Of a DNA stretch of 19,757 nucleotides, positions 8,542 through 14,310 are shown one piece after another (position 1 is the first letter of the stretch; each line of letters begins with the position of its first letter). This DNA comes from a virus. Taxonomy: Duplodnaviria; Heunggongvirae; Uroviricota; Caudoviricetes. The stretch lies in the IMG/VR virus record IMGVR_UViG_2734482784_000002, positions 1-19,757 of that record, one strand, 5' to 3'. The position numbers and the translations under genes were made by a program. The notes below the pieces were generated by a model that saw only the letters and a program-made list of their open reading frames with translations, made no database searches and was not told the origin of the DNA.

Positions 8542-9035
8542 TGCTGACCCCACAAACAGATTTCACGCTCAATCTCACGACGAGTCATGAGACCTTTCCA
8601 TTGCTTACCGCCAGCATATGTCCAGCGACGTAGCTGATCACATGCGCCTTTGATATCGCCCTGGTTTATTTTGCGAAGAAGCGTCGATGTTCTGAAATTG
8701 CCAGCACCCACGTTGTAAACGAATGAGTAAAGAGCGCCGCGCGTTGTTTCCGGTATATCGACTTTGATGTACGGGTTAATTTGTCTGGCGACAGTGGCAA
8801 GGTCTTTATTCAAGAGTGCATTGCATTCTGCTTTGGTATACGTTTTACCGAGCATGATGTCTTTTCCTGTATGCCCGTGACATACAGTCCATACACCAAC
8901 AATATCTTTGTATGGTATGTAGCTGACACCTTCCAGACCATCGTTACCACTTGGGCCAGTGATTAACACCGATGCTATAGCAATTGCTCCGCCACCAATA
9001 GCAGCAGCAACGGCTTTTCGTAATGATGGAGGCAT
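8538..9035 (-). CDS. SAR endolysin (phage 21 R-type lysozyme)
   Basis: 165-aa protein with an N-terminal signal-anchor-release segment ([18 protein letters not shown]) and a lysozyme catalytic region; matches the recalled P21 endolysin. Its start overlaps the holin stop (TAATG). Confidence 0.85.
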
Positions 9036-9250
9036 TATTCACCTCTCGCAGCCTTGCGCTTATCTTCTTTAATCTTGAAATAAAGGTTTGTCAGGTACGT
9101 CAGCAGGCCAAAAACCAGACTACCCAGCACACCGATTGCAGCCCACTGTGACGGAGTTACTCTATCGAGCAACTGTAAAAACCAGTAGCCAGCACTGCCT
9201 GCGGAGGTGCCATAGGCGACACCCGTTGTTAACTTATCCATGGATTTCAT
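9035..9250 (-). CDS. Pinholin, S21-type, with dual-start motif
   Basis: 71 aa [71 protein letters not shown] with two TM segments and Met1/Met4 (antiholin/holin) starts. The track ORF 9035..9394 is an upstream over-extension. Confidence 0.85.
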
Positions 9251-9520
9251 AACCCCCACCTCGCAGATGCGGGCCTGTGTAATGGAAACAAAAAATGGCC
9301 ACCAGCGGCCCGTAAAAAACACCCCGTCAAAAGCACCGGCATCCGCAGATGCCCTTTGCGTGGCGTTATTTGATGCGCGCCAGATGTGGCGCAAAGAAAT
9401 GAAATAAGACTTATCGAAAATTAAGGTTAATTTGATGATTTAAACCACTTCTGAAGCTTAGTAGTATGAACATGTCCCCAGAAGGGGGCCAATACTTATG
9501 AGTCTTCATGGACTTTGTCC

Positions 9521-9553
9521 CGCGGCGTTAATCCGACGGCCGCGCTTTTTTTT
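9521..9553 (+). terminator. Plus-orientation intrinsic terminator
   Basis: cgcggc (9521..9526) pairs with gccgcg (9539..9544), followed by c and eight T (9546..9553). Confidence 0.4.
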
Positions 9554-9588
9554 GCGCCATATTCATCGCTAACTTACATGGCATTGCC

Positions 9589-9623
9589 ACACGGGCATTA
9601 TCAGTGTCCGTGTTTCTTTTTTT
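9589..9623 (+). terminator. Plus-orientation intrinsic terminator
   Basis: Stem acacgg (9589..9594) pairs with ccgtgt (9608..9613), extendable with wobble pairs, followed by ttcttttttt (9614..9623). Confidence 0.45.
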
Positions 9624-9635
9624 AGGGTTCAGAAT

Positions 9636-9660
9636 AAAAAAAACCGCCCGGTGGAGGCGG
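9636..9660 (-). terminator. Minus-orientation intrinsic terminator between tRNA cluster and lysis genes (tR'-like)
   Basis: Minus-strand RNA CCGCC-UCCACCG-GGCGG followed by eight U (plus-strand a-run 9636..9643, stem 9644..9660). Confidence 0.55.
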
Positions 9661-9936
9661 TAAAGGATGTATTTCCAGGTTTTGCTTAGTATATGATTAA
9701 TCTCAATGTCATTTTTAGCGATGTTTACAACATCGGGATGGCACATCACCGGCCCTGCAAGGAAATACAAAATCTCCACCGATAATGCACCATTCTGCTG
9801 CCGTAAAAAAATCAGCACTGAGGCTACACCTGGCCTCAAATCATAGCCAGAGAACAGAATGCTTTTTCGAAACAACCTGCTCCCACGTAATAAAAATACG
9901 CCAGTGCTGCAATACAATAAGGCTTATTTCAAATGC

Positions 9937-10011
<75 letters not shown>

Positions 10012-10014
10012 ATA

Positions 10015-10090
<76 letters not shown>

Positions 10091-10095
10091 ACAGA

Positions 10096-10169
10096 ACCGC
10101 CACCGAGGTATCGAACCTCACACCTACCACTTAAATGATGGTCGGCTCTTCCCGATGAGCAGATGGCGG
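10096..10169 (-). ncRNA. tRNA-like element with non-canonical anticodon arm (possible pseudo-tRNA or atypical tRNA)
   Basis: Reverse complement CCGCCATCTGCTCATCGGGAAGAGCCGACCATCATTTAAGTGGTAGGTGTGAGGTTCGATACCTCGGTGGCGGT has acceptor, D-arm and T-arm (TTCGATA loop) pairings. The best anticodon arm (ACCAT/GTGGT, loop CATTTAA) puts A at position 33, needs an extra nucleotide, and no CCA is encoded. Confidence 0.35.
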
Positions 10170-10237
10170 TGTTCCCTTAATGGGATAGCTGTATTCAGTA
10201 ATCCGTTATTCGAATACACCATCGAAGGAACAAGCGC

Positions 10238-10262
10238 ATTATATACATTCACGATTCGTGTT
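10238..10262 (-). promoter_or_regulatory. Candidate minus-strand promoter (-10 TATAAT) with an abutting palindromic operator-like site
   Basis: Plus-strand attata at 10238..10243 is TATAAT on the minus strand. Palindrome TTCACGA-T-TCGTGTT at 10248..10262 lies 4 nt upstream of it. Positioned between the Q stop and the tRNA cluster, pointing at the tRNAs and lysis genes. Confidence 0.4.
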
Positions 10263-10302
10263 ATTAGCTAATTGCGCACAACACAGCTTCATTTAACGAA
10301 AT

Positions 10303-10340
10303 GCCCCCCAGAAACAACAAAACCCGCTCAATGGCGGGTT
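10303..10340 (-). terminator. Minus-orientation terminator ~85 nt downstream of the Q-like gene
   Basis: Minus-strand RNA ACCCGC-CAUUGA-GCGGGU (10322..10339) followed by UUUUGUUGUUU. Confidence 0.45.
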
Positions 10341-10423
10341 CTGGTAAAGTTCATGCGCTTGGTTCGCCTCGCGATACAGCTTTGCGAAGCATACCGGAAT
10401 TGAAGCAATTTATGCGTAAAAAA

Positions 10424-10966
10424 TCAAGCTATTTTTTGAGCAAATGATTCTCGCATGGGAATATACAGGGCATATTCAGCAACGGCTAACCAATTAGCAA
10501 TTCGCTTTTCGCATGTGCTAAAACACCACTCTGGGTGTGCATCATTTAGCAATTCAGCCATTTTGCGTTTGGTCATCCCCCGCCCCTCATACCGTTGCCG
10601 AAGGACGCTAATCAATCCTGGATGCTCTGCCAGCACCTCACTTATGACCCGATCAATACATAACGCCTCTGCATCAGTACAATGCGCCAGCCAGCTCTTT
10701 TGCTTACCGTTAATCATATCCCGCAAAAAAGCCTCAAGTTCAGACTTGTTCAGGCCTGCTTTTTTCATCCTCCGGAGCGCCTCGTTAATTGCCGTTTTTG
10801 TCAGCTTTTTAGAGCCCAACAACTGGTTGAACATATTCCCCGTCTTACCGCCGCCAATATACGACCAGCGCCCCCACATGCGCAGTTTTCCCTGAATCCA
10901 GACACTTTCCAGCGTGGTGAGACGAAGGTGTTCCCCGCTTTTACCTGTATTTGTTGGGTAAATCAT
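10424..10966 (-). CDS. Late-gene antiterminator Q-like protein
   Basis: 180-aa ORF in the canonical Q position between the nin-region gene and the tRNA/lysis block. Contains a Cys cluster (CTDAEALC...CFSTC) and its start overlaps the upstream stop by 4 nt. Call is by position and general resemblance, not exact recall. Confidence 0.55.
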   Translation of the reverse strand: MIYPTNTGKSGEHLRLTTLESVWIQGKLRMWGRWSYIGGGKTGNMFNQLLGSKKLTKTAINEALRRMKKAGLNKSELEAFLRDMINGKQKSWLAHCTDAEALCIDRVISEVLAEHPGLISVLRQRYEGRGMTKRKMAELLNDAHPEWCFSTCEKRIANWLAVAEYALYIPMRESFAQKIA

Positions 10967-11250
10967 AAATGACCTTTCTTTCTCCAGATTTCTTGTGTGC
11001 GAAAACCCCCTTCAGCATGCATCAGGCGCAATTCTTCTTTGGTGTAATCGCTGGTTTTTACCCGCCCGTCGATTAGATCGTGGCATGAGCTACAGGCTAT
11101 CGCCGCCTGCATATCGTGTGGTTTTGTCGCTGTTCCGCACGTCCCCGCCAGCCTGTAATGCGCCAGCACAGAGGTTTCGGGATTGTGATTGCAGTAGCCA
11201 GGGATTCTGATCTGGCACATCTGGCCTTTAGCCGCTTTACGTAAGTCCAC
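10963..11250 (-). CDS. YbcO-like nin-region protein (DUF1364, putative metal-binding nuclease)
   Basis: DLRKAAKGQMCQIRIPGYCNHNPETSVLAHYRLAGTCGTATKPHDMQAAIACSSCHD... resembles DLP12 YbcO as recalled. The track start at 11283 is TTG; GTG at 11250 gives an N-terminus (M)DLRKAAKG closer to the family. Either start overlaps the Cro-like ORF. Confidence 0.6.
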   Translation of the reverse strand: MDLRKAAKGQMCQIRIPGYCNHNPETSVLAHYRLAGTCGTATKPHDMQAAIACSSCHDLIDGRVKTSDYTKEELRLMHAEGGFRTQEIWRKKGHL

Positions 11251-11422
11251 AATGAGCGCCAAGCCGATTAAGGGTGGAAACAATTTTTCTGCACTCCTCT
11301 AGCCCAGGGGTACGAAAGTTTGCTTCGTAATTTGCTAGTCGGCTTTGTATCCACCCTAACTGAACAGCGAGTTGTCTTTGAGACAGGCCAAGCTGTTTTC
11401 GATATGTTGAAATTTTGTTCAT
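11237..11422 (-). CDS. Cro-like small HTH (XRE-family) regulator
   Basis: 61 aa with a helix-turn-helix (LGLSQRQLAVQLGWIQSRLANYE). ATG at 11422 with GGAGG 7 nt upstream. Divergent from the repressor-like gene across a 96-bp palindrome-rich spacer; occupies the ydaS position of Rac. Confidence 0.6.
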   Translation of the reverse strand: MNKISTYRKQLGLSQRQLAVQLGWIQSRLANYEANFRTPGLEECRKIVSTLNRLGAHCGLT

Positions 11423-11446
11423 TGAAAACCTCCGACGACAATTTTA

Positions 11447-11461
11447 AACACATCCTGTGTT
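11447..11461. promoter_or_regulatory. Operator-like palindrome AACACA-TCC-TGTGTT
   Basis: Perfect 6-3-6 inverted repeat in the divergent intergenic region. It lies between a TTGACC -35-like hexamer (minus strand, complement of 11466..11471) and a TTTAAA -10-like element reading toward the Cro-like gene. Confidence 0.45.
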
Positions 11462-11492
11462 ATGCGGTCAAGCTGTTTTGTGTTTTATGTGA

Positions 11493-11507
11493 ATCACGAT
11501 TCGTGAT
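11493..11507. promoter_or_regulatory. Operator-like palindrome ATCACGA-T-TCGTGAT
   Basis: Perfect 7-1-7 inverted repeat 12 nt upstream of the repressor-like gene ATG. Same core as the sites at 10248 and 12023. Confidence 0.5.
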
Positions 11508-11518
11508 ACAAGGATGCA

Positions 11519-11941
11519 ATGGAAAAAGAAAACGAAAAAATTGCCGCTAGTAGGCTCAATGACAAAATTGCAATGCGTCTTAAAGAGCGCAGGCAGAAGC
11601 TTGGTTTATCGCAAGGAAAACTTGCTGAAATCTGCGGATGGACGCAATCGCGTATAGGTAACTATGAGGCGGGCAGCAGAAATGTTGGAGTGCATGATGC
11701 TGTCGTACTGGGAAAGGCACTGGGCATATCTCCTCCTGAACTCCTGTTTGGAGAAAAAGACTCTTCTGAATTGTGGTTAAATGAATCCCAACGAAAACTT
11801 CTAGAGTTGTTTAACCAGCTACCGGGCTCAGAACAACAACGAATGATTGAGCTATTTGAAGTTCGGCTAAAAGAAATCGACGAGTATGTAGAAAAATATT
11901 TGAGAGGCAGGCTTAAAGATCCCCCCCCACCGGAGCAATGA
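11519..11941 (+). CDS. Immunity repressor-like HTH protein (RacR position), no peptidase domain evident
   Basis: 140 aa with an N-terminal XRE-type HTH (LGLSQGKLAEICGWTQSRIGNYE) and a ~65-aa C-terminal tail with no Ser/Lys autocleavage motif that I can see. AAGGA Shine-Dalgarno; strong terminator follows. Confidence 0.65.
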   Translation: MEKENEKIAASRLNDKIAMRLKERRQKLGLSQGKLAEICGWTQSRIGNYEAGSRNVGVHDAVVLGKALGISPPELLFGEKDSSELWLNESQRKLLELFNQLPGSEQQRMIELFEVRLKEIDEYVEKYLRGRLKDPPPPEQ

Positions 11942-11968
11942 TCTTGCTATCACAGTAATATGCCTATC

Positions 11969-11992
11969 AGCCCGCTATCAGCGGGCTTTTTT
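11969..11992 (+). terminator. Intrinsic terminator after the repressor-like gene
   Basis: Perfect 8-bp stem agcccgct/agcgggct with a 3-nt loop (11969..11987), followed by six T. Confidence 0.7.
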
Positions 11993-12022
11993 GTATCATC
12001 ATCATATGACACCTCACCACAA

Positions 12023-12065
12023 AACACAATTCGTGTTGACACGGAAAATCATTTTGTGTTTAATA
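12023..12065 (+). promoter_or_regulatory. Candidate promoter (-35 TTGACA, 17-bp spacer, -10 TTTAAT) with overlapping operator-like site
   Basis: Near-palindrome AACACAA-T-TCGTGTT at 12023..12037 overlaps TTGACA (12036..12041); TTTAAT at 12059..12064. Lies ~180 nt upstream of the ydaG-like gene. Confidence 0.45.
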
Positions 12066-12240
12066 AACATATCCAAACAACGCCCCACCAGAGAACGGCA
12101 GGACAATACCTCGAGTTATCCAGCCACTGAACAGGGCTAAGTAGCCAGCCTGAGGCATACGAACATGACGGCAGTTGTTGATTGATACAAAGCGCAGTAG
12201 ATAAAACGTTCCGCCACCCAGCGTTAAGGGGAGAGATAAG

Positions 12241-12375
12241 ATGGTGCATTATGAAGTAGTTCAGTATTTGATGGATTGTTGCGGTATCACTTACAGCCAG
12301 GCTGTGCAGGCTTTACGCAACAACGACTGGGATCTCTGGCAGGCAGAAGTCGCTATACGTAGCAACAAGATGTGA
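12241..12375 (+). CDS. ydaG: YdaG-like small protein (44 aa)
   Basis: MVHYEVVQYLMDCCGITYSQAVQALRNNDWDLWQAEVAIRSNKM with a GGGGAGAG Shine-Dalgarno upstream. Recognised from memory as the small Rac protein next to racR. Below the ORF-track cutoff. Confidence 0.55.
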   Translation: MVHYEVVQYLMDCCGITYSQAVQALRNNDWDLWQAEVAIRSNKM

Positions 12376-12385
12376 GATTCGCAAA

Positions 12386-12541
12386 ATGCAAAAAATCGAC
12401 CTCGGCAACAACGAATCCCTGGTGTGCGGCGTGTTCCCCAACCAGGATGGAACGTTCACTGCCATGACGTATACCAAAAGCAAAACATTTAAAACCGAAA
12501 CTGGTGCGCGCCGATGGTTGGAGAAGCACACAGTAAGCTAA
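12386..12541 (+). CDS. ydaF: YdaF-like small protein (51 aa)
   Basis: MQKIDLGNNESLVCGVFPNQDGTFTAMTYTKSKTFKTETGARRWLEKHTVS, 10 nt after the ydaG-like stop. Its stop overlaps the convergent sieB stop. Below the ORF-track cutoff. Confidence 0.55.
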   Translation: MQKIDLGNNESLVCGVFPNQDGTFTAMTYTKSKTFKTETGARRWLEKHTVS

Positions 12542-13026
12542 CGATTAAAACGTCTACTCCTGCTGTTCCAGAATAACTTCATAAAATGGGAGTATTTTTC
12601 GGTGACGAGATAATAAGAACAGTTTGCGCTATCACTCTGATGTTGAATGATGCCCTTCCGTTCTAATTTTTTCATAACCGGGTTACGGCAAGGAGAAGTG
12701 ATAATAAGATTTCCTGTTTTAAGGAAATCTTTAAATACAGCGATTTCTTTCTCAGATAAACGAAGCAATACTCGTTGCTCTGGTAGTAATGAATAATGCT
12801 TTTGAATATGTGCTCGCAATCTTGAGAAGGAAATGGCGACCACGAAAGAAAAGGCAAAAACGATAATCTGAAAGAGCCAAGGTATTTCAGTATAAGCATT
12901 GAATGCGACAGTAAACTCTTTCGGTATCAGCCAGAGAGTGAGACCAAAAATGATAATCGTATACATAAGTCTTTCGAGTGGCTCGTTAGCAAAAAGTTTC
13001 AACAATGGAGTAAATACATCCAACAT
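12538..13026 (-). CDS. sieB: Superinfection exclusion protein B
   Basis: 162 aa from the ATG at 13026: MLDVFTPLLKLFANEPLERLMYTIIIFGLTLWLIPKEF..., a membrane protein recognised as Rac SieB. The track ORF is extended 41 codons upstream. Confidence 0.8.
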   Translation of the reverse strand: MLDVFTPLLKLFANEPLERLMYTIIIFGLTLWLIPKEFTVAFNAYTEIPWLFQIIVFAFSFVVAISFSRLRAHIQKHYSLLPEQRVLLRLSEKEIAVFKDFLKTGNLIITSPCRNPVMKKLERKGIIQHQSDSANCSYYLVTEKYSHFMKLFWNSRSRRFNR

Positions 13027-13467
13027 ATCAATAACTCTCAACTGTAAGGGTATTGAAATGTTAACACAAGCTCTCGCTGTAGGGGTATAGCCGAGACCAC
13101 CGAAGCCCGGAGGTGGTGAAATAAAACCGGGCACAACACGAAGGCGCATTTCCGATATCCATAAAGAGTCGGTCTTGTCTGTTAAATTTAAATGGTGGGA
13201 GTGCGCCTCCGGTTGTAAATAACGACATTGCTGTGTGTAGTCCTGGCGGCATCAGTTTTTTTCTTGAAGTTCGGCTGATGTCCGCCCTTTTTAAAGTGAA
13301 TTTTGTGATGCGGTGAATGCGGCTAAGCGCACGTGGCACAGTTAAAAGTCATGTTAGTCCTTATTGGTTTGGGTGGGAAAGCCGACTGTAATTGTTAACT
13401 GGTTGCAGTCACCTGGAAGCACCAGGCACCGCATCAACAAAGTTCATTTGTAAAAATGGAGATAATT

Positions 13468-13689
13468 ATGATTGCACATCACTGCGGAACTGATGAAATA
13501 CCACGTCAGTGTGTGACTCCTGGTGATTATGTTCTTCATAACGGCCGGACATATATTGCCTCGGCAAACAATATTAAAAAGCGAAAACTTTATATTCGTA
13601 ACCTGACTACAAAAACATGCATTTCTGACTGCATGATTAAAGTCTTCCTCGGTCGTGATGGTTTACCTGTAAAGGCGGAGTCATGGTGA
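13468..13689 (+). CDS. kilR: KilR, FtsZ-targeting cell-division inhibitor
   Basis: 73 aa [72 protein letters not shown] recognised as Rac KilR. GGAG 6 nt upstream of the ATG at 13468. Confidence 0.85.
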
Positions 13690-13859
13690 TGACTAAGAAA
13701 ATAAAATGTGCTTACCACCTTTGCGATAAAGAAGTTGAAGAAAGCAAAAGCATTACAAGACCACTTCATTTCATGCGTGGAGTTATCCCAACAACGGAAA
13801 TGAAAAAATATTGTAGTGAAATCTGTGCCGAAAAAGACCAGATGGCACACGAACTTTAA
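13689..13859 (+). CDS. ydaE: YdaE-like small Cys4 zinc-ribbon protein (56 aa)
   Basis: [56 protein letters not shown] with Cys at 7, 12, 43 and 47. The ATG overlaps the kilR stop; an in-frame ATG two codons upstream (13683) is an alternative start. Confidence 0.55.
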   Translation: MTKKIKCAYHLCDKEVEESKSITRPLHFMRGVIPTTEMKKYCSEICAEKDQMAHEL

Positions 13860-13933
13860 TTAACTGAGTATTCGAAACTGAATTTATGCCAGCAATGGCA
13901 GGGATTCGCTCAACCTTAATTAAGGAGAAAAAC

Positions 13934-14209
13934 ATGATTACCAATTATGAAGCCACTGTTGTAACTACCGATGACATTGTTCACGAGGTTAATCTGGAAG
14001 GAAAGCGTATTGGCTACGTGATTAAAACAGAAAATAAAGAAACCCCATTCACTGTGGTTGATATCGACGGTCCATCAGGCAACGTTAAAACACTTCACGA
14101 AGGTGTCAAAAAAATGTGCCTGGTGCATACCGGAAAGAATCTGCCCGCAGAAAAAAAAGCCGAATTTCTGGCAGCTCTGATTGCAATGAAATTAAAAGGT
14201 GAAATCTGA
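13934..14209 (+). CDS. racC: RacC
   Basis: 91 aa MITNYEATVVTTDDIVHEVNLEGKRIGYVIKTENKETPFTVVDIDGPSGNVKTL... with AAGGAG upstream; recognised as Rac RacC. Confidence 0.8.
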   Translation: MITNYEATVVTTDDIVHEVNLEGKRIGYVIKTENKETPFTVVDIDGPSGNVKTLHEGVKKMCLVHTGKNLPAEKKAEFLAALIAMKLKGEI

Positions 14210-14310
14210 AAGAGATAGCCTGCGTATGGCGCAGGCTATGAGCAGTGTGTATCCGGCAAGATCATTCACTGAACAAAACGAATTTTAATCTGAGTTGAGG
14301 TTAAAAAACA

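Follow-up and report, generated by a model that had tools for sequence, protein, structure and literature searches.

The stretch of DNA analysed here, called the window below, comprises 19,757 nucleotides (positions 1 to 19,757 of the IMG/VR virus record IMGVR_UViG_2734482784_000002) and is a Rac-like lambdoid prophage of Escherichia coli. Its late genes lie on the minus strand and are transcribed from right to left. The subject of the analysis is a slot of 686 bp at 9251-9936 that forms the leader between two transfer RNA (tRNA) genes and the holin gene, and in which no RNA gene is annotated. A first-pass annotation of the window had described this slot as free of open reading frames (ORFs), with three terminators in opposing orientations and possibly a short RNA read from the plus strand. 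We consider it reasonably probable that the slot holds a conserved, unannotated small RNA (sRNA) gene, here named P1, which is accompanied by terminators and directed against the late genes, and that it is of a kind known in lambdoid prophages. The elements of the P1 module, of the unit that follows it and of the late-direction terminator that faces them are as follows.

9419-9467, plus strand: P1 promoter-like block, A/T-rich from 9419, with TTTAAA at 9439-9444, a 17-nt spacer and TAGTAT at 9462-9467
9474-9553, plus strand: predicted P1 sRNA of about 80 nt (58-allele alignment, covariation, strand asymmetry, RNAalifold and folding)
9474-9489, plus strand: 5′ hairpin of P1, hairpin 1 (RNAalifold, covariation)
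9490-9509, plus strand: unpaired, conserved linker of 20 nt, AUACUUAUnnUUCUUCAYGG (alignment, RNAalifold)
9510-9520, plus strand: small hairpin of P1, GGACUUUGUCC (alignment, RNAalifold)
9521-9553, plus strand: predicted terminator t1, a bulged stem at 9521-9544 with U8 at 9546-9553 (folding, inspection, conservation with compensatory changes)
9557-9623, plus strand: t2 unit, with CATGGCATTGCC at 9577-9588, the stem at 9589-9613 and a U-run to 9623
9589-9623, plus strand: predicted terminator t2, stem 9589-9613 and then UUCUUUUUUU to 9623 (-14.5 kcal/mol, z-score (z) -4.5, none of 200 shuffles as good)
9661-9636, minus strand: predicted intrinsic terminator tL in the late direction, convergent with t2, stem 9661-9643 followed by U8, which ends at 9636 (-11.1 kcal/mol, z -3.0)

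P1 was aligned in 58 distinct alleles. The promoter-like block, the linker, the small hairpin and the loop of t1 are nearly invariant among alleles whose identity to the window is otherwise about 79-83%. No other stretch of the slot varies as little as the promoter-like block, the -10 sequence of which reads TAATAT in diverged alleles. P1 folds with an energy of -28.3 kcal/mol (z -2.3), and RNAalifold independently recovers the three hairpins of P1 and leaves the linker unpaired. In the four helices that were specified 94.6% of the cells of the alignment pair, compared with 33-48% for slid partners. Double-sided changes are found in 6 of 27 pairs, for example in hairpin 1, where CCCC/GGGG becomes CUCC/GGAG, and in t1, where C-G becomes U-A, and the observed covariation score was reached in none of 500 shuffles. 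The helices contain 110 G·U cells compared with 9 A·C cells, an excess which indicates that it is the plus strand that carries the structure; only on this strand are the stems followed by U-runs. Covariance analysis and comparison with the same slot in related prophages, which were among the checks that the first-pass annotation had proposed, show plus-strand hairpins carrying compensatory changes, and P1 conserved across alleles and behind two holin families. The short plus-strand RNA antisense to the late leader that it had suggested is supported, but the coordinates are shifted; the RNA would lie at about 9474-9553, with a promoter at 9439-9467, and not at 9400 to 9520.

The homology between alleles is limited to the module. 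It begins at about 9419 in one locus (L080), and in three others (L088, L100 and L103) it stops within the U-run of t1, with different sequence beyond. It follows from these edges that the unit running from the promoter to t1 is a discrete cassette. We note that the sequence beyond t1 in these three loci holds a late-strand tRNA-like gene and its terminator. In L088 (3303-3460) and L100 t2 is absent, and t1 is directly convergent with this gene of 82 nt (Val-AAC according to ARAGORN) and its terminator.

The slot was compared with 683R6, SerU-LTIIb, DLP12, about 90 IMG/VR prophage contigs and six diverged E. coli loci. A segment that includes the predicted RNA (A1, 9365-9553) is conserved in all of the loci compared, and the P1 module has recombined separately from the sequences beside it. 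In all 97 loci in which the holin was located, P1 has the antisense orientation to that gene. The distance from the -35 sequence to the start of the holin is 165-190 bp with two unrelated holin families, and about 845 bp where a moron carrying TerB and DUF3927 genes is present. P1 was found in 328 of 5426 complete E. coli genomes and in Escherichia ruysiae, which was the only other species to match in a scan of contigs with one genome per species. Some part of the slot is present in 383 of 5426 complete genomes, and the slot is identical at 100% in several E. coli chromosomes. Strains that carry the module include 2017-03-3CC (NZ_AP027783, 2487592-2488277) and E. coli W/KO11FL (NC_017660, 3366877-3367147), the latter at 94% identity. 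A search of a literature library for papers containing P1 sequence strings found none. P1 is probably a new sRNA family within an architecture that has already been described, the sequence of the RNA itself being new.

Coding explanations do not account for the conservation. RefSeq (PGAP) has a hypothetical protein of 96 amino acids (WP_001578250.1) at 9528-9818 on the minus strand that spans all three terminators. In relatives whose identity ranges from 99.3% to 78%, changes in homopolymer length shift the frame of this ORF or stop codons interrupt it, and the call is probably spurious. A late-strand ORF of 32 amino acids (9411-9509, minus strand) is frameshifted by 1-nt insertions or deletions in the loop of hairpin 1 in at least seven alleles. 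These two and a small ORF of 24 amino acids were each broken or unconserved. To judge by these comparisons the slot is effectively ORF-free, with no conserved ORF, in agreement with the first reading of the window.

That reading had also placed two tandem terminators on the plus strand. Both are present, but t2 is not independent of P1. A P1 covariance model scores 13.6 bits on the t2 unit of the window and 22 bits on that of the alternative allele in L005. The match covers the small hairpin, the terminator and the U-run, while hairpin 1 and the promoter are absent. The helix of t2 (helix 4) has three pairs with double changes. On this sequence comparison we regard the t2 unit as a truncated, degenerate tandem paralogue of the 3′ half of P1. 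No convincing promoter belonging to the t2 unit, or to a short late-strand unit, was found by inspection or scan. In the 683R6-type allele the U-run of t1 is interrupted (CUACUUUUC) and t2 has U7, and in alleles without t2, t1 keeps U6. Every allele compared retains at least one good predicted terminator on the plus strand. The DNA features of t1 and t2 fit an RNA with a predicted size of about 80 nt together with a longer form of about 150 nt that would end at 9623.

The slot contains further structures that are read in the late direction, and other genes of the prophage lie on both sides of it. These are the following.

10343-10318, minus strand: tR′-like predicted terminator, between the Q-like gene, which it closely follows, and the tRNAs (scan; -18.1 kcal/mol, z -1.9)
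9805-9936, minus strand: structured trailer of tRNA-Gly, ending in a predicted late-direction terminator with stem 9839-9818 and U7 at 9811-9805 (scans, folding)
9721-9810, minus strand: long, imperfect, conserved hairpin (-36.9 kcal/mol, z -4.0; plus strand -18.3)
9662-9723, minus strand: allele-specific filler of 62 bp in place of a STnc100-like body of about 150 bp in the alternative allele; no promoter evident
9283-9377, minus strand: module A2, late-direction hairpins before the ribosome-binding site of the holin (terminator-like sites at 9353-9338, and at 9310-9297 with U6)
9035-9250, minus strand: P21-type (essD-like) holin, the first lysis gene downstream of the slot (PF04971, E 5e-35; annotation)
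9937-10011, minus strand: tRNA-Gly (ARAGORN)
10015-10090, minus strand: tRNA-Thr (ARAGORN)
10424-10966, minus strand: Q-like protein (DUF1133, plus a weak Phage_antitermQ match)
14311-16971, plus strand: RecT and RecE, toward the right end of the window
18522-19757, plus strand: integrase, at the right end of the window

The scan detected five terminator-like sites in the slot, compared with 1.0 ± 1.4 in shuffles; although the slot makes up 3.5% of the length of the window, it has 5 of the window's 29 sites. Three of these, all in the late direction (9839-9818, 9353-9338 and 9310-9297), are additional to those seen earlier. An intrinsic terminator is a G+C-rich stem-loop that runs directly into a U-run. 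This arrangement is found in t2, tL and the three minus-strand scan sites, and by inspection and folding in t1, with its bulged stem and U8. We identify all of them as predicted intrinsic terminators and do not attribute the five scan sites to chance. The three opposing terminators of the first-pass annotation thus hold at 9521-9553, 9589-9623 and 9636-9660, by scan, folding and conservation.

The minus-strand member of the three had been taken for a tR′-like site that Q-modified polymerase would read through. Such a polymerase must indeed pass tL in order to reach the holin, but the analogue of tR′ is the hairpin at 10343-10318, because this precedes tL with two tRNA genes in between. The hairpin lies 80-105 nt past the stop codon of the Q-like gene. 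By contrast tL is about 760 bp downstream of that gene and past the tRNAs, unlike tR′ of lambda. In phage lambda there are several terminators between pR′ and the lysis genes (tR′ and later ones in the late leader), as is predicted for the window, where on established lambda biology lysis would likewise require antitermination by Q. We note two further opposing terminator-like hairpins, at 11969-11987 (plus strand) and 12105-12081 (minus strand), upstream of the region of the Q-like gene.

The trailer of tRNA-Gly accompanies the tRNAs in related loci. The minus strand of 9936-9800 folds with -45.8 kcal/mol (z -3.7), and the trailer has the form of a three-way junction, closed by GCAGCACUG and CAGUGCUG and then followed by U7. 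Its predicted structure could serve more than termination, for example as a sponge for sRNAs of the 3′ external transcribed spacer (3′ETS) type. The long hairpin at 9721-9810 has 29 pairs in RNAalifold (23 alleles), four of them compensatory, with many G·U pairs. Its 5′ arm takes in the U-run of the terminator upstream, and its 3′ arm ends in the invariant UGUUGUAAA. The predicted fold could be a site for RNase III, or the 5′ part of a late-strand sRNA. Module A2 is common to both holin families and phiP27. In the region of the filler there is only a weak CyaR-like match (9637-9706, E 0.06-0.34). Matches in the slot to other Rfam families (this one, a mir-983-like match on the long hairpin and tpke11) were at chance level and were set aside.

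The slot as a whole is a recombination mosaic. The part at 9724-9936 moves with the tRNAs, and the part at 9554-9723 is variable, with an allele of 170 bp in the window and a commoner alternative of about 262 bp. It is also a site for morons, as had been proposed from its position in the lambdoid map. Relatives carry TerB and DUF3927 genes here, 933W has stx2 and nanS-p, and DLP12 has nmpC; the TerB and DUF3927 moron is inserted between A1 and A2 (L051-type), which identifies the slot as the moron site. In L051 (1491-2065) and about 19 IMG/VR loci these genes lie between the promoter side of P1 and A2 with the holin. A remnant of IpeX or of the 3′ untranslated region of nmpC was considered and rejected; what DLP12 has in common with the window is limited to the holin with its ribosome-binding site (9001-9267).

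Other minus-strand late genes in the window encode lysozyme, Rz, TrkG, and coat and tail-tube proteins. The gene for potassium uptake, trkG (6482-7957, minus strand), is a moron that separates the lysis cassette from the structural genes. It is similarly placed in Rac of K-12 and in phage 683R6, and a strong terminator is present at 6395-6372. On the other side of the slot, at about 10093-10170 (minus strand), there is a decayed tRNA-Lys(UUU), homologous to the intact tRNA-Lys found upstream of tRNA-Thr in L047 and L049. It is called by neither ARAGORN nor Rfam in the window. Fainter remains of a tRNA-Ile lie upstream of it.

The layout of the slot has close counterparts. Prophages of enterohaemorrhagic E. 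coli (EHEC) are known to carry convergent pairs of sRNAs at the moron site 3′ of pR′, where the short anti-sRNAs AsxR and AgvB are antisense to the late genes and EcOnc27 is on the late strand (Tree et al. 2014, PMC4104026). PasA and PasC, each of about 80 nt, are sRNAs that depend on Hfq and adjoin the holin/lysozyme operon in antisense orientation, and PasD is a STnc100-related RNA on the late strand (Pearl Mizrahi et al. 2021, PMC8550237, Table S6 for PasA and PasC; Zhu, Shabalina & Storz 2026 preprint, 10.64898/2026.05.13.724894). The published convergent pairs of like layout are thus AsxR/AgvB, PasA/PasC and STnc100/PasD. The PasA locus, in prophage PP2 of the enteropathogenic strain E2348/69, follows the plan of the window, with an antisense promoter that gives an RNA of 85 nt just upstream of a holin of the same family as that in the window. 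A minor form of PasA of 236 nt extends, by its coordinates, to the terminator of another, related unit further downstream, which may be compared with t2, and PP2 also has a late-direction terminator just before the holin. The neighbour on the other side is a sialate esterase in the Pas loci, whereas it is the tRNAs in the window. Expression and Hfq dependence have been shown for PasA and PasC, whereas for P1 both are predicted. The likeness does not extend to sequence. The P1 covariance model gives 6.4 bits on PasA and 4.4 bits on PasC (E about 2-6), so that no similarity in sequence or profile was detected, and by inspection the published sequences of the Northern probes for PasA and PasC are absent from the slot. 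The model also has no match at the novel-sRNA locus of PP6.

The position of EcOnc27 coincides with a STnc100 match. In 933W AsxR (88 bits) is convergent with STnc100 (208 bits), which ends at a terminator convergent with AsxR. Of the STnc100/EcOnc27/PasD family (RF02076) the window keeps only the terminator, tL, in the same role, whereas the body is replaced by the unrelated 62 bp. The alternative allele (683R6 and SerU-LTIIb; L003 3190-3386) has a full-length match of 22.9 bits, below the gathering score of 47, and this similarity may mark a diverged branch of the STnc100/PasD lineage. STnc100-like sequence is present in L005 and most of the IMG/VR loci as well, and includes a CGGGAGGCACCCG hairpin. 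We also note that 933W (L052, 321-413, plus strand) has a weak Esr41-like match (28 bits, where the gathering score is 102) that is antisense to the late genes. It lies between nanS-p (L0105) and L0106, with a promoter-like TTGACA sequence upstream and a strong terminator, and adds a further antisense unit of sRNA-like form at the moron site, on the side of the lysis genes.

Given this resemblance, P1 and the t2 unit might be highly diverged true homologues of AsxR and AgvB that sponge a core sRNA. They share with AsxR, AgvB and EcOnc03 the moron site 3′ of pR′, the orientation antisense to late transcription and a convergent partner that is a late-strand sRNA or terminator. Moreover, a 12-nt motif CATGNNATTGCC that stands directly 5′ of the terminator stem in those three RNAs has a single occurrence in the window, compared with 0.10 expected, and this stands exactly 5′ of t2, at 9577-9588. 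Against this, the Rfam models of AsxR (RF02703), AgvB (RF02702), STnc100 and Esr41 have no match at E≤10 in 9400-9940 or at E≤1 in 8500-11500, although an identical scan recovers AsxR in 933W with its 88 bits, BLAST of AsxR, AgvB and EcOnc03 finds no match in the window, and the P1 model misses AsxR in 933W. The known RNAs are 51-60 nt long with a variable 5′ end of 14-18 nt and a conserved 3′ domain of about 42 nt, whereas P1 is predicted to have about 80 nt, a 5′ hairpin and a different conserved core. The t2 unit is of AsxR/AgvB-like size but lacks promoter-like sequence. We regard true homology as improbable. Somewhat less improbable, though still unlikely, is that there is no sRNA gene at all, the plus-strand hairpins being insulators or bidirectional terminators that shield the tRNA genes, with the other conservation hitch-hiking. 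It is the terminators alone that are directly demonstrable, convergent pairs of terminators often part transcription units, and the promoter scores below threshold. Yet there is no plus-strand gene from coordinate 881 to the slot that could feed such terminators. The most invariant bases lie upstream of them, in the promoter-like block, the linker and hairpin 1 with its compensatory changes, and the left edge of the module in L080 is about 55 bp upstream of hairpin 1.

The conserved block could instead act on the late strand, either as a processing or leader element or by encoding the 32-amino acid ORF as a leader or toxic peptide to which P1 is antisense, in the manner of a type I system. The start of that ORF (AUGAAGA...) is exactly opposite the conserved linker, one diverged allele (L049) retains the ORF together with its stop, the element always adjoins the holin, and further late-strand structures are nearby. 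We nevertheless judge this to be very unlikely, given the frameshifts in hairpin 1, a peptide that is not hydrophobic (unlike the conserved small ORF expected of a type I toxin-antitoxin system), and the asymmetry between G·U and A·C cells that favours folding of the plus strand. Read on the minus strand, the hairpins have A-runs before them and no U-runs after them. It is hardly to be expected, finally, that the slot is decaying junk, functionless now and bearing the scars of moron insertions and deletions. It is a mosaic with alternative alleles and deletions, and both the t2 unit and the neighbouring tRNA-Lys are visibly decayed. P1 itself, however, is nearly intact among diverged alleles, with substitutions that preserve the structure, and is kept behind the two holin families and beside three different right-hand neighbours.

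An sRNA gene thus remains our preferred reading, and several points weigh against it. The promoter-like block agrees with the consensus at 8 of 12 positions, which is below the threshold of the scan, so that conservation is the whole of the case for it. No more than the six helix pairs mentioned above show double changes, a count no higher than in shuffles (208 of 500), and since the alleles are related the counts of cells overstate the number of independent events. Taken by itself t1 is thermodynamically unremarkable (z -0.3 compared with shuffles) and was missed by the ungapped scan. The best duplex of the linker with a target in trans inside the window, other than itself, has -20.0 kcal/mol, within the range for shuffled seeds (-17.9 to -23.2). 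The tight linkage of P1 to the holin could reflect the boundary of a recombination module and not function.

What the comparisons show are the hairpins, their covariation and strand bias, the edges of the module, its fixed place relative to the holin and the lack of coding. From the features of the DNA we infer the transcription of P1, its promoter, its 5′ end, its dependence on Hfq and the existence of targets. The σ70-like promoter at 9439-9467 would start the RNA at about 9474. This would fold into the 5′ hairpin, the linker and the small hairpin, and would end at t1 (9553). Transcription that read through t1 would stop at t2 (9623), giving the form of about 150 nt, so that t2 would act as a backup. 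Together the two terminators would keep transcription of P1 out of the convergent tRNA operon. In the opposite direction, there would be about five intrinsic terminators on the late strand between pR′ and the holin (10343, 9839, 9661, 9353 and 9310), with the consequence that the lethal lysis genes would be read only by Q-modified polymerase.

By analogy P1 is most likely an Hfq-binding regulatory RNA that acts in trans and is made in lysogens, with the linker as its seed, because PasA/PasC and AsxR/AgvB share its position and orientation. A role in trans is favoured because the linker and the loop of t1 are better conserved than the stems, while a purely cis-acting antisense RNA needs no constraint on its sequence. 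Dependence on Hfq is favoured because the terminator of P1 has a long U tail and is preceded by a U-rich stretch. The late leader, with which P1 has full complementarity, may be a further target in cis.

P1, as predicted, is the third unrelated sRNA that lies antisense just upstream of a prophage holin and next to a late-direction terminator, after PasA/PasC and the Esr41-like element of 933W. This recurrent placement might be a safety device acting in cis rather than a neutral landing pad for morons, although we think it doubtful. Convergent transcription, together with an RNA duplex of 80 bp with the late leader, would then destroy leaky read-through before it reached the holin. If this were true, the lysis genes of lysogens would be under a control resembling that of a toxin-antitoxin system, and trans regulation of the host would be a secondary gain.

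Prophage sRNAs at the moron site rewire host regulation in pathogenic E. coli, AgvB acting on GcvB, AsxR on FnrS and the use of haem, and the Pas RNAs on virulence genes. With P1 these would be joined by an unannotated family, present in about 6% of the complete E. coli genomes. Many of its carriers are commensal, enterotoxigenic (ETEC) or animal isolates rather than EHEC or enteropathogenic E. coli (EPEC), and it accompanies Rac-like prophages that also bear LT-II toxin or TerB morons. The recurrence of unrelated antisense sRNAs next to holins raises the question of whether they may protect lysogens from leaky lysis.

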